From Candidatus Woesearchaeota archaeon (GTDB lineage: Archaea; Nanobdellota; Nanobdellia; Nanobdellales; CAZNIQ01): a stretch of DNA of 32,000 nucleotides. The notes beneath the pieces are model-generated. The model worked only from the letters and a program-made list of their open reading frames with translations, ran no database searches and had not been told where the DNA came from. A program made the translations under genes and the position numbers. Each line of letters begins with the position of its first letter. Position 1 is the first letter of the stretch. Location of the stretch: the NCBI GenBank assembly GCA_964573185.1, contig CAZNIQ010000004.1, positions 1 to 32,000 on the forward strand. The letters are read 5' to 3'. Positions 4,563 through 31,268 of the stretch are shown here, one piece after another.

Positions 4563-4874
4563 TTGTTTATGATATTTCCTCAAACGAACTATATTTCTAT
4601 TAATGCTACCGACTTTAGGAACGTTATAATTTCAAAAATTGTTCAAAAAATAAAAGGTAAAAAAGTAATTATTAATGGAGCAGGGCACATACCGGGATTG
4701 GAATTCTACTTAAGCCATTCAGTAGCTCTTGAGACAAAATTCGAATTTTATGATGCTCTATCAAAACTTCTGACGAAGAAAAACCTAGGAGAATTGTGGT
4801 ACATTTATTATAGATTGGCAAAAATGGGAAATAAGATTTATTTTGCCGCAAAATACGATAAGATTAAGATTTAG
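4563..4874 (+). CDS. Hypothetical protein, downstream part of the TAG-interrupted frame
   Basis: 103 aa, in frame with 3939..4547 (offset 624 nt). The codons after the TAG (FLASTLFMIF) continue the hydrophobic run. The stop codon shares its last base with tRNA-Pro position 1. Confidence 0.45.
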   Translation: MFMIFPQTNYISINATDFRNVIISKIVQKIKGKKVIINGAGHIPGLEFYLSHSVALETKFEFYDALSKLLTKKNLGELWYIYYRLAKMGNKIYFAAKYDKIKI

Positions 4875-4944
4875 GGGCCGTAGGCTAGCGGTAGGCTGCC
4901 GGGTTCGGGTCCCGGTGACCCGGGTTCGAATCCCGGCGGCCCCA
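4874..4944 (+). tRNA. tRNA-Pro (anticodon CGG)
   Basis: Manual cloverleaf: acceptor GGGGCCG/CGGCCCC, D stem GGCT/GGCT (2 GC + 2 GU pairs), anticodon stem CCGGG/CCCGG with loop TTCGGGT, variable TGAC, T arm CCGGG-TTCGAAT-CCCGG, discriminator A. No encoded CCA. Confidence 0.9.
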
Positions 4945-7839: not shown

Positions 7840-8037
7840 TTAAATCTTGTCTATTCTATAGAAGAGATCCTTGATGTGGCTTTCAGAGAGATTCCGGGTT
7901 ACCAACCAATAGTAGAATTCATCGAGAAGATCCAAATTTACAGAAACAAATAAATACTGACGAAATATTGAAAAGTTTGAAATTGTTTGAATGGGCTTGG
8001 GACCCGGTGACCCGGGTTCAAATCCCGGCGGCCCCAT
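7840..8037 (-). pseudogene. Int(C) remnant of the partitioned integrase (truncated)
   Basis: 65-aa ORF starting antisense in the att repeat (MGPPGFEPGSPGP). It continues with LLDEFYYWLVTRNLSESHIKDLFYRI, reminiscent of a tyrosine-recombinase N-domain. It stops at 7840, and 7663-7839 has only stop-interrupted frames. Confidence 0.45.
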
Positions 8038-8450: not shown

Positions 8451-8506
8451 GGCCCGGTACCGCTATCGGGTTGAGACGTGATACCTGACTTCAAACCGGG
8501 CCGACA
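8451..8506 (+). ncRNA. H/ACA box sRNA candidate (single hairpin)
   Basis: GC-rich island: lower stem GGCCCGG/CCGGGCC, 8-nt and 7-nt pocket strands (TACCGCTA, CTTCAAA), upper stem TCGGGT/ACCTGA, 11-nt loop TGAGACGTGAT with two GA steps, then G-ACA. There are 15 nt from the upper-stem base to ACA. Confidence 0.6.
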
Positions 8507-16241: not shown

Positions 16242-16303
16242 TTTAAATTTCAGTTGCAGTTCGGATCATCATTTTCAGCGCTCACCCATCTCATCACTTT
16301 AAA
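16242..16303 (-). ncRNA. C/D box sRNA (2'-O-methylation guide)
   Basis: The minus strand reads GTGATGA(C)-GATGGGTGAGCG-CTGA(D')-AAA-TGATGA(C')-TCCGAACTGCAA-CTGA(D). Both guides are exactly 12 nt. TTTAAA flanks can form a terminal stem. Confidence 0.8.
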
Positions 16304-16324: not shown

Positions 16325-16750
16325 ATGCTTATTGTACTTTACAAACTTAAAGACGAAGAAAACATAAAGGAAATTTTATTTTTATCTCAAGAATTCAATT
16401 TTGATGTTGTTATAATTCATAGAGAAAATGCAAATATCCGGTATGAGGAATTGAAAAAGATAAAGGACTTTAAAATATATTATACATTTGACGATTTCTT
16501 AAAAGAGTATTCAAATAAAAAGTTTTATTTTATAGAAACTTACGGAAATAAATTTTTATATGAAGCGGAACTAGACAAAAATGGGATATATGTTTTTGGA
16601 GCAGAAGATTATGGAATACCATATCATGAAATAGAGAAAGTAAAAGATAAGGAAGTAATAAAAATACCTGTGAAGAAACCTGGTAGTTATAACGTTACAT
16701 CTACCGTTGTTATGCTTTTAACAGAACTGAAATGCCGAGGTTTGTTATAA
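16325..16750 (+). CDS. SPOUT-superfamily (SpoU/TrmH/TrmL-like) RNA methyltransferase
   Basis: 141 aa. C-terminal knot-region pattern GIYVFGAEDYGIP...IKIPV...SYNVTSTVVMLLTEL. Confidence 0.6.
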   Translation: MLIVLYKLKDEENIKEILFLSQEFNFDVVIIHRENANIRYEELKKIKDFKIYYTFDDFLKEYSNKKFYFIETYGNKFLYEAELDKNGIYVFGAEDYGIPYHEIEKVKDKEVIKIPVKKPGSYNVTSTVVMLLTELKCRGLL

Positions 16751-17142
16751 AGGCTTATGGGCATCCTTTAATAAAAGCAACACACAAATCTACGTTTGAA
16801 ATTACAAAAGATAACTATTTAACTCCAAGAGGGGACTGTATTATAGGGATAAAAGCCTCTCACTCAGTAAAGGATTTACCAATAGAGCTTAAAGAACACT
16901 TAAAGAAAGGCGGCAAAATAGAAATAATATTAAAGGTAGATGATTTAGAAGATAAGATAATTGCGTATGGACACCCTAATCTAATTTTAACAAATGAAAG
17001 ATCTATTGTTGTTAGAAGAAGTACTTTCATAGATGATAGAACTTTAGCTATAAGGGCTAATAAAGCTGCTAAAGACATTAGAAGAGATCTTATTGAAGAA
17101 TTGAAAAAAGAGAAGGAACTAGAATTTATTATTATATGGTAA
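16732..17142 (+). CDS. Conserved archaeal protein, DUF371-like
   Basis: 136 aa. HPLIKATHKSTFEITKDNYLTPRGDCIIGIKA resembles the DUF371 signature as I recall it. Confidence 0.5.
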   Translation: MPRFVIKAYGHPLIKATHKSTFEITKDNYLTPRGDCIIGIKASHSVKDLPIELKEHLKKGGKIEIILKVDDLEDKIIAYGHPNLILTNERSIVVRRSTFIDDRTLAIRANKAAKDIRRDLIEELKKEKELEFIIIW

Positions 17143-17193
17143 TCAGCCCCTAGGTTCTTCATCAATCTTCAGGGCTCAAGACCGTCATCATTT
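17141..17193 (-). ncRNA. C/D box sRNA (2'-O-methylation guide)
   Basis: The minus strand reads ATGATGA(C)-CGGTCTTGAGCC-CTGA(D')-AGAT-TGATGA(C')-AGAACCTAGGGG-CTGA(D). Both guides are exactly 12 nt. Confidence 0.85.
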
Positions 17194-17194
17194 T

Positions 17195-17251
17195 TGTACC
17201 CCGGGACAGAGATCGGTGATCACAAATCCCACCGACGTCGCGGCCCGGGGC
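17195..17251 (-). ncRNA. H/ACA box sRNA candidate, directly 5' of the C/D sRNA
   Basis: Minus strand: lower stem CCCCGGG/CCCGGGG, pocket strands CCGCGACG (8 nt) and TCTCTGT (7 nt), upper stem TCGGTG/CACCGA, 11-nt loop GGATTTGTGAT, then T-ACA. There are 15 nt from the upper-stem base to ACA. Same architecture as 8451-8506. Confidence 0.6.
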
Positions 17252-17353
17252 TTTTATATATATTTATATAAAAGTTTATAATATTTTAAAATACATTAAA
17301 ATCAGATAGTTTGTGTGGGTTTAAAAATAAAGCGATTAGGAAGTTGTAGAAAA

Positions 17354-17384: not shown

Positions 17385-17582
17385 ATGCCCAGGAGAGGTA
17401 AGACCTTAAAAGAGGTTATCTTAGAATGTGCCTCCGAACCAAAAACAAGAGACGAAATAGTACAATGTGTAAAGAGGAGAAAGCCAAGAACAAGGCCAAG
17501 AGTAATTAAAGCATTAATAACAAAGATGCTAAAGAAGGGAGAATTAAAAGAAACTTCTGACGGAAAGATCGTAAGAGCTTAA
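17385..17582 (+). CDS. Small basic winged-helix-like protein
   Basis: 65 aa. TRDEIVQCVKRRKPRTRPRVIKALITKMLKKGELKETSDGKIV looks wHTH-like. It sits where S27e often lies upstream of aIF2-alpha, but it has no zinc-ribbon Cys pattern. Confidence 0.5.
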   Translation: MPRRGKTLKEVILECASEPKTRDEIVQCVKRRKPRTRPRVIKALITKMLKKGELKETSDGKIVRA

Positions 17583-31181: not shown

Positions 31182-31268
31182 GCGGCGGTGCCCGAGCCTG
31201 GACAAAGGGGTCGGGCTTAAGACCCGATGGCCTTAGGGCCGCCCGGGGTTCAAATCCCCGCCGCCGCA
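31182..31268 (+). tRNA. tRNA-Leu (anticodon UAA), class II
   Basis: Acceptor GCGGCGG/CCGCCGC, 3-bp D stem CCC/GGG, anticodon stem TCGGG/CCCGA with loop CTTAAGA, long variable arm (GGCC-TTAG-GGCC), T arm CGGGG-TTCAAAT-CCCCG, discriminator A. No encoded CCA. Confidence 0.92.

Follow-up and report, generated by a model that had tools for sequence, protein, structure and literature searches.

In the Thermococcales, an H/ACA hairpin and a C/D box sRNA are known to share one transcript: Pab21 of Pyrococcus abyssi and Pf1 of P. furiosus occupy the 5′ end of the transcript that carries the C/D sRNA snoR9 (PMC2377435, PMC4652768, PMC3849170), and Northern blots of Pab21 revealed forms with and forms without the C/D motif (PMC2377435). 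The Rfam family RF00065 models the hairpin, the ACA box and the C/D boxes of this composite jointly. C/D and H/ACA domains are also united in one RNA in the eukaryotic composite scaRNAs (U85/SCARNA10), in which the C/D domain encloses the H/ACA domain and which possess a CAB box, are targeted to Cajal bodies and have snRNA substrates. A different type of linkage is represented by the tRNA-C/D dicistrons of Nanoarchaeum equitans and the C/D-C/D dicistrons of Pyrobaculum, where the C/D sRNA borrows the promoter of an upstream non-coding RNA and the linkage is fluid (PMC3491384, PMC6009581); there, the upstream partner is a tRNA or a C/D sRNA and not an H/ACA RNA. The sole H/ACA sRNA reported for the Nanoarchaeota is a single double-hairpin RNA of 159 nt in N. 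equitans. No H/ACA-C/D tandem in the Nanoarchaeota was described in the literature searched, and the composite is absent from a review of archaeal RNPs (PMC3608112).

Here, such a locus was analysed in the window, i.e. the whole stretch of 32,000 nucleotides of DNA under study. A sequence-only reading of the window had noticed an H/ACA-like hairpin directly before a C/D box sRNA on the same strand, which is borne out by the sequence anatomy and the fold. It had not been aware of a described archaeal tandem of this kind, and the novelty implied by this does not hold in view of Pab21/Pf1-snoR9 and RF00065. The layout itself is known; new is its occurrence in the Nanoarchaeota, so that the tandem is not confined to the Thermococcales. 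It adds a well-supported H/ACA guide to a phylum with minimal genomes and provides a template for annotation where Rfam finds nothing at gathering thresholds. Overall, the locus is best explained, with high probability in our judgement, by a single promoter giving rise to a processed composite of an H/ACA guide for the equivalent of 23S rRNA U2457 and a C/D sRNA. The topology of the window locus is a tandem, in contrast to the nested one of the scaRNAs.

Anatomy and genomic setting of the tandem

On the minus strand of the window, nucleotides 17251-17195 constitute a 57-nt hairpin with the features of archaeal H/ACA guides that ends in ACA, and right after this hairpin and AAA a canonical C/D box sRNA starts (17191-17143). 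The order of the parts of both halves is given in Table 1. The coordinates of the sequence-only reading were confirmed, and its linker was corrected to three A residues before AUGAUGA, or four before UGAUGA.

Table 1. Features of the tandem locus, listed from 5′ to 3′ on the minus strand (L014, relative that keeps the whole tandem)
Feature	Position	Strand	Basis or remark
AT-rich promoter region (presumed role) with TATA-like elements	17263..17283	-	Sequence; conserved in L014
H/ACA lower stem, 5′ strand GCCCCGGG	17244..17251	-	MFE and centroid fold; identical in L014
Pocket, 5′ guide strand CCGCGAC	17237..17243	-	Pairs 3′ of the target U with GUCGCGG (archaeal 23S consensus)
Upper stem, 5′ strand GUCGGUGG	17229..17236	-	Fold; closing G.U of the window is G-C in L014
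K-loop GA-UUUGU-GA (GAUUUGUGA)	17220..17228	-	Tandem sheared G.A pairs; presumed L7Ae site
Upper stem, 3′ strand UCACCGAU	17212..17219	-	Fold
Pocket, 3′ guide strand CUCUGU	17206..17211	-	Pairs with ACAGAG directly 5′ of the target U; identical in L014
Lower stem, 3′ strand CCCGGGGU	17198..17205	-	Fold
Box ACA	17195..17197	-	14 nt from the pocket top (17211 to 17198)
AAA linker between ACA and C box	17192..17194	-	AA in L014; GGG in Thermococcus
Box C AUGAUGA	17185..17191	-	Invariant in the 4-way alignment A1
D′ guide CGGUCUUGAGCC	17173..17184	-	Predicted to direct 2′-O-methylation of tRNA-Leu nucleotide 34
Box D′ CUGA	17169..17172	-	Sequence
D′-C′ spacer AGAU		-	
Box C′ UGAUGA	17159..17164	-	Sequence
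D guide AGAACCUAGGGG	17147..17158	-	Other sequence in L016 (GGAACCUGGGAA) and in N. equitans
Box D CUGA	17143..17146	-	Abuts the stop codon of the plus-strand DUF371 gene (17142)

The hairpin is composed of an 8-bp lower stem, a pocket of 7+6 nt and an 8-bp upper stem, the latter forming a 10-bp 'GA stem' together with two G.A pairs. Its dimensions and its ACA spacing fit the 10/6/8 model of archaeal H/ACA sRNAs and the rule that ACA lies 14-15 nt from the pocket top (PMC4652768, PMC2377435), and at the sequence level the stem-pocket-stem arrangement, the apical K-loop, the ACA distance and a bipartite target were all found. In comparison with dinucleotide shuffles, the first 54 nt of the hairpin (-31.5 kcal/mol) have a fold z of -3.5 and the whole tandem unit one of -3.8. 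The GC content of the 60 nt upstream of the C box is 63%, that of the window approximately 30% and that of the window tRNAs 71-75%; a GC island of this kind is a signature of structured RNAs in an AT-rich hyperthermophile. The C/D half has canonical sequences in all four boxes and two guides of 12 nt each.

In a covariance-model scan, suggested as a check by the sequence-only reading, no Rfam family matched at the tandem locus at gathering thresholds. The relaxed scan yielded sub-threshold matches to two H/ACA families, Pab19 with 30.7 bits and Pab160 with 21.5 bits, and to the composite family snoR9, the last spanning 17129-17251 (29.1 bits, E = 6e-5). The K-loop of the window aligned with high posterior probability to the GA...UGUGA K-loop of Pab160 and Pab19. 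With 29.1 bits versus a gathering threshold of 90, the window shares the architecture of RF00065 and is not a member of the family.

The generic tandem pattern SSSSS-N-ACA-N2-9-UGAUGA-N12-CUGA-N3-6-UGAUGA-N12-CUGA was matched once in the window and 0.00 times in 100 shuffles. When 185,579 species genomes were searched with it, four loci were obtained, all in Thermococci, and two of these score 130-133 bits on RF00065. These Thermococcus loci read ...GGGCC-UACA-GGG-AUGAUGA-N12-CUGA-N4-UGAUGA-N12-CUGA and have the spacing of the window. Common to Pab21-snoR9 and the window are a single H/ACA hairpin with a K-loop, UACA, 3 nt and AUGAUGA, followed by 12-nt D′ and D guides with a D′-C′ spacer of 4-5 nt, and one (in the window presumed) transcript. 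The two differ in phylum (Thermococci versus Nanoarchaeota/DPANN), in genomic context and in all three guides: Pab21 targets 16S U891, and the Thermococcus pocket is UCCCGCC.../GGGUUCC instead of CCGCGAC/CUCUGU. In two Thermococcus MAGs (L010, 2223-2340; L012, 6461-6570), the C/D part of snoR9 is intact and the Pab21 hairpin truncated or degenerate, snoPyro_CD being matched and RF00065 not; either a real loss of the H/ACA part or an assembly artefact accounts for this.

The plus strand carries, on the upstream side of the tandem, the genes for a SpoU/TrmL-like methyltransferase and for DUF371, which ends at 17142, and on the downstream side a 65-aa ORF (17385-17582) followed by the genes for aIF2alpha, Nop10 and a PAC2 chaperone. 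As a protein specific to H/ACA RNPs, Nop10, encoded 1.2 kb from the tandem, shows that this genome possesses the H/ACA machinery. The product of the flanking DUF371 gene is approximately 70% identical to Candidatus Nanopusillus proteins. Judged from its sequence and surroundings, the tandem is a real two-module guide-RNA gene in a nanoarchaeon (Nanopusillaceae-like).

The whole tandem is kept in the assembly GCA_054017035.1 (L014/L015), where the hairpin (4811-4867) and the C/D sRNA (4760-4808) likewise lie on the minus strand and the 65-aa ORF is 94% identical. Four substitutions separate the two hairpins: a C to U change at the first pocket nucleotide (UCGCGAC), which still pairs with the target G as G.U, two changes inside the K-loop (GA-UCUAU-GA) that leave GA/GA in place, and a U to C change that turns a G.U of the upper stem into G-C. 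Every segment compared between the window and L014 has a nucleotide identity of 87-93% (approximately 90% overall), so that the conservation of the hairpin fits function and does not prove selection. It is highly improbable that the hairpin came to lie beside a functional C/D sRNA by chance or represents a decaying H/ACA pseudogene. Decay would have a precedent in the degenerate Pab21 hairpins next to intact C/D parts in L010 and L012; in the window and L014, however, stems, K-loop, both guides and ACA are intact, each of the four substitutions is structure-neutral or compensatory, and the frequency of the tandem pattern expected by chance is 0.00.

Predicted targets of the guides

The target motif ACAGAG-UN-GUCGCGG was derived from the pocket before any rRNA was examined, and the rRNA of E. 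coli (L019) and the haloarchaeal rRNA operon located on a plasmid of Halomicrobium (L020) were scanned. The only match was ACAGAG-UC-GUCACCG in the 23S rRNA of Halomicrobium, with two mismatches; 18 of 1000 shuffled guides reached a match as good as this one. The Rfam LSU_rRNA_archaea consensus reads ACaGag-uc-guCgCgG at model positions 2546-2560 and provides a perfect bipartite match of 6+7 = 13 bp, and a perfect match of all 14 bases that the motif specifies, namely the target U and those of the 13 pairs, is expected approximately 2e-5 times by chance in 4.5 kb of rRNA. The pocket was thereby matched against the archaeal consensus and a haloarchaeal 23S rRNA, from which that of the nanoarchaeon itself may differ; the target stretch predicted for its 23S rRNA is ACAGAGUCGUCGCGG. 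Both Halomicrobium mismatches are located in the stem of helix 89, which covaries, and the snippet GCGGUUUGAGAC of the N. equitans 23S rRNA (supplement of PMC3491384) matches the consensus 3′ strand of this stem, which supports GUCGC on the 5′ strand in the Nanoarchaeota. No acceptable H/ACA target was found in E. coli rRNA, as is expected because the bacterial helix 89 differs.

The target U is position 2552 of the Rfam archaeal LSU model and aligns with E. coli U2457, a known pseudouridine. The best explanation of the pocket is that it guides pseudouridine formation at the U2457 equivalent, within the peptidyl-transferase region at the base of helix 89, as predicted from the pairing. In P. 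abyssi, the target U falls in the pseudouridine cluster of helix 89, and the site probably corresponds to the conserved Psi2549 guided by motif 2 of Pab35 (PMC2377435). Motif 2 of Pab35/HgcF, which probably acts on the same or a neighbouring site, is one of several hairpins in its H/ACA sRNA and has no link to a C/D sRNA. [quoted passage not shown]

Three further candidates were considered as orthologues or source of the hairpin and rejected. The complement of the pocket fits neither the site of Pab21 (16S U891) nor that of Pab19 (16S U1017), the lower stem of which is similar, and the pockets of the 159-nt H/ACA sRNA of N. equitans are unrelated.

If the hairpin were not a guide, it could serve as a stabilising 5′ leader of the C/D sRNA or as a terminator for the convergent DUF371 gene on the plus strand. 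The plus strand indeed has CTTTTATATA after the hairpin, and the C/D sRNA of other lineages can dispense with the hairpin. This reading nevertheless leaves three things unexplained, namely the spacing of exactly 14 nt to ACA, the retention of the GA/GA K-loop in L014 and the perfect 13-bp bipartite match at a known pseudouridine site; moreover, in L014 the hairpin stays with the C/D sRNA although DUF371 is encoded elsewhere. Archaeal termination requires oligo-T and not hairpins, which counts against the terminator variant. Taken together, a non-guide hairpin appears quite improbable, and a role as H/ACA guide is preferred.

The C/D half can be compared over a wider range. The C box and, of the D′ guide, GGUCUUGAGC followed by C or U are invariant among the window, L014, L016-L018 and sRNA12 of N. 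equitans (alignment A1). The latter sRNA (315990-316045; PMC3491384), which is abundant in RNA-seq with 23,000 reads, has a C box and a D′ guide (GGUCUUGAGCC) identical to those of the window, and differs in lacking an upstream hairpin and in its D guide. By the identity of these elements, the C/D half is orthologous to N. equitans sRNA12.

The D′ guide and the anticodon arm of the window tRNA-Leu(UAA), at 31214-31224 (+), pair over 11 nt; the fifth guide nucleotide upstream of box D′ faces the wobble nucleotide 34, and this single pair is a G.U. A tRNA-Leu(CAA) with the same stem, the anticodon-arm stretch of which is expected to be GGCUCAAGACC, would pair perfectly. Methylation of the wobble ribose of nucleotide 34 is predicted on this basis for tRNA-Leu(CAA) and may possibly extend to nucleotide 34 of tRNA-Leu(UAA). 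For N. equitans sRNA12, the target 23S-17 was published in a study that considered rRNA targets only, and the pairing involves a bulge and G.U pairs (PMC3491384). As a predicted target, tRNA-Leu nucleotide 34 fits the conserved D′ guide better than 23S-17. The wobble position of tRNA-Leu is thereby suggested as the target of a C/D sRNA that is conserved in nanoarchaea and was earlier given a weak rRNA site. The D guide had no convincing match in the rRNA of E. coli and Halomicrobium or in the retrieved loci. The SpoU/TrmL-like methyltransferase gene (16325-16750, plus strand) lies 400 nt from the sRNA. Bacterial TrmL makes the same modification at tRNA-Leu nucleotide 34, and the position of such a gene next to a tRNA-Leu wobble guide may be a coincidence.

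Transcription, processing and evolutionary history

Upstream of the hairpin, TTATAAA is located at -30..-24 and TTTTATATAAA at -22..-12 relative to G17251. The C/D sRNA itself is preceded by the AAA linker and the GC-rich hairpin of 57 nt, which leave no room for a TATA box approximately 25 nt upstream of it. Since a separate C/D promoter is therefore not possible, co-transcription of the H/ACA and C/D halves is a strong inference from the sequence. The sequence-only reading had likewise argued that both RNAs are made from one transcript or function as one molecule, and the missing space for a second promoter agrees with a shared transcript.

For transcription, protein binding, the modifications themselves and processing of the tandem RNA, we infer the following course. 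A single promoter upstream of 17251 would yield a transcript of approximately 110 nt, in the 5′ module of which L7Ae would bind the K-loop and Cbf5-Nop10-Gar1 the lower stem and ACA. The pocket would pair with ACAGAG-UC-GUCGCGG of the 23S rRNA and so place the U2457 equivalent for its conversion to pseudouridine. The 3′ module would be a C/D sRNA bound by L7Ae-Nop5-fibrillarin, whose D′ guide would direct the methylation of tRNA-Leu nucleotide 34. By analogy with Pyrococcus Pab21-snoR9, the transcript probably occurs in full length as well as split into its halves, which would be produced when the short A-rich linker is cleaved or trimmed.

Alternatively, the RNA of approximately 110 nt might never be split and act as an obligate composite, i.e. 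a bifunctional RNP with a Cbf5 and a fibrillarin module and an archaeal counterpart of the scaRNAs. The linker of just 2-3 nt offers little for an endonuclease to recognise, and a form of Pab21 retaining the C/D motif accumulates in P. abyssi in vivo; the same Northern blot, however, also contains a form without the C/D motif (PMC2377435). The predicted substrates, 23S rRNA and tRNA-Leu, are unrelated, so that no gain from coupling is obvious, and the C/D half stands alone in L016 and N. equitans. An obligate composite is thus considered unlikely, and a composite that is at least partly processed remains the preferred reading.

The syntenic relatives were reached only through the 65-aa ORF, homologues of which form only two clusters among 5.8 billion proteins. 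This ORF (17385-17582, plus strand) encodes a basic, conserved protein without a Pfam or NCBIfam match, is divergently transcribed from the sRNA and is syntenic in all three lineages. In a second lineage, represented by three independent samples (L016-L018), the ORF is 71% identical and the C/D sRNA is found at the same place, but hairpin and ACA are absent and the 60 nt upstream of the C/D sRNA have a GC content of 15%. In N. equitans, the 40 nt upstream of sRNA12 are AT-rich and contain neither a hairpin nor an ACA, and this sRNA has its own promoter (PMC3491384). The conservation in relatives, on which the sequence-only reading had made its proposal depend, is therefore divided: L014 keeps the tandem, whereas in L016-L018 and N. 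equitans the C/D sRNA is present and the hairpin is not. From these lineages it follows that the tandem is neither old nor obligatory as a unit. That distant relatives lack the hairpin argues against an ancient obligatory composite and not against a functional guide.

The distribution suggests that, in the lineage of the window and L014, an older C/D gene with an existing promoter received an H/ACA module between the two. Loss of the hairpin in the other lineages is the alternative, and parsimony suggests insertion. The tandem of the Nanoarchaeota was probably assembled recently and independently of that of the Thermococcales, as the distribution of the hairpin suggests. Guide-RNA modules can come or go beside an existing sRNA promoter over a short evolutionary distance. 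A bolder version, according to which the tandem arose independently by insertion ('promoter capture') and persists as a single bifunctional RNP, is put forward tentatively and is rather doubtful. If true, composite C/D-H/ACA guides would be a recurrent, convergent archaeal invention and a possible model for the beginnings of eukaryotic scaRNAs.

The homologues of DUF371 and aIF2alpha in the relatives are not adjacent to the sRNA, because the genomes are rearranged. In the closest relative, the two proteins are 87% and 91% identical, respectively, yet are encoded on other contigs than the sRNA. Oligo-T follows box D in L014 (CUGAUUUUU) and N. equitans (CUGAUUUU) and is absent in the window copy. 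The DUF371 stop codon abutting box D, the missing oligo-T and the location of DUF371 and aIF2alpha elsewhere in the relative place the sRNA unit at a rearrangement breakpoint. A metagenome search with aIF2alpha led to two short, distant DPANN contigs with the usual L44e-S27e upstream and no sRNA.

Other RNA candidates in the window

Besides the tandem, a second, stand-alone single-hairpin H/ACA candidate was observed at 8451-8505 (+), which reads GGCCCGGU/ACCGCUA/UCGGGU/UGAGACGUGAU/ACCUGA/CUUCAA/ACCGGGCC-G-ACA and has a fold z of -3.3 and a weak snoR9 match of 19.7 bits. Its 5′ guide is complementary to UAGCGGU of the 16S rRNA at approximately 686-692 of the E. coli sequence, from which archaeal 16S rRNA may differ. 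A second canonical C/D box sRNA (GUGAUGA-GAUGGGUGAGCG-CUGA-AAA-UGAUGA-UCCGAACUGCAA-CUGA) lies at 16250-16297 (-), flanked by the genes for archease and the SpoU methylase; neither E. coli nor Halomicrobium rRNA yielded a target for it. Finally, the 3′ portion of a tRNA-Pro(UGG)-like sequence is located at 7993-8036 (+), comprising an anticodon arm with CUUGGGA, a T arm and the acceptor 3′ strand GGCCCCA. It has no 5′ half upstream, no ARAGORN call and no complementary leader or partner in the window. Two readings are possible: half of a split tRNA gene, a type known from N. equitans, or a copy of tRNA-Pro(CGG) (4874-4944) that has been truncated.
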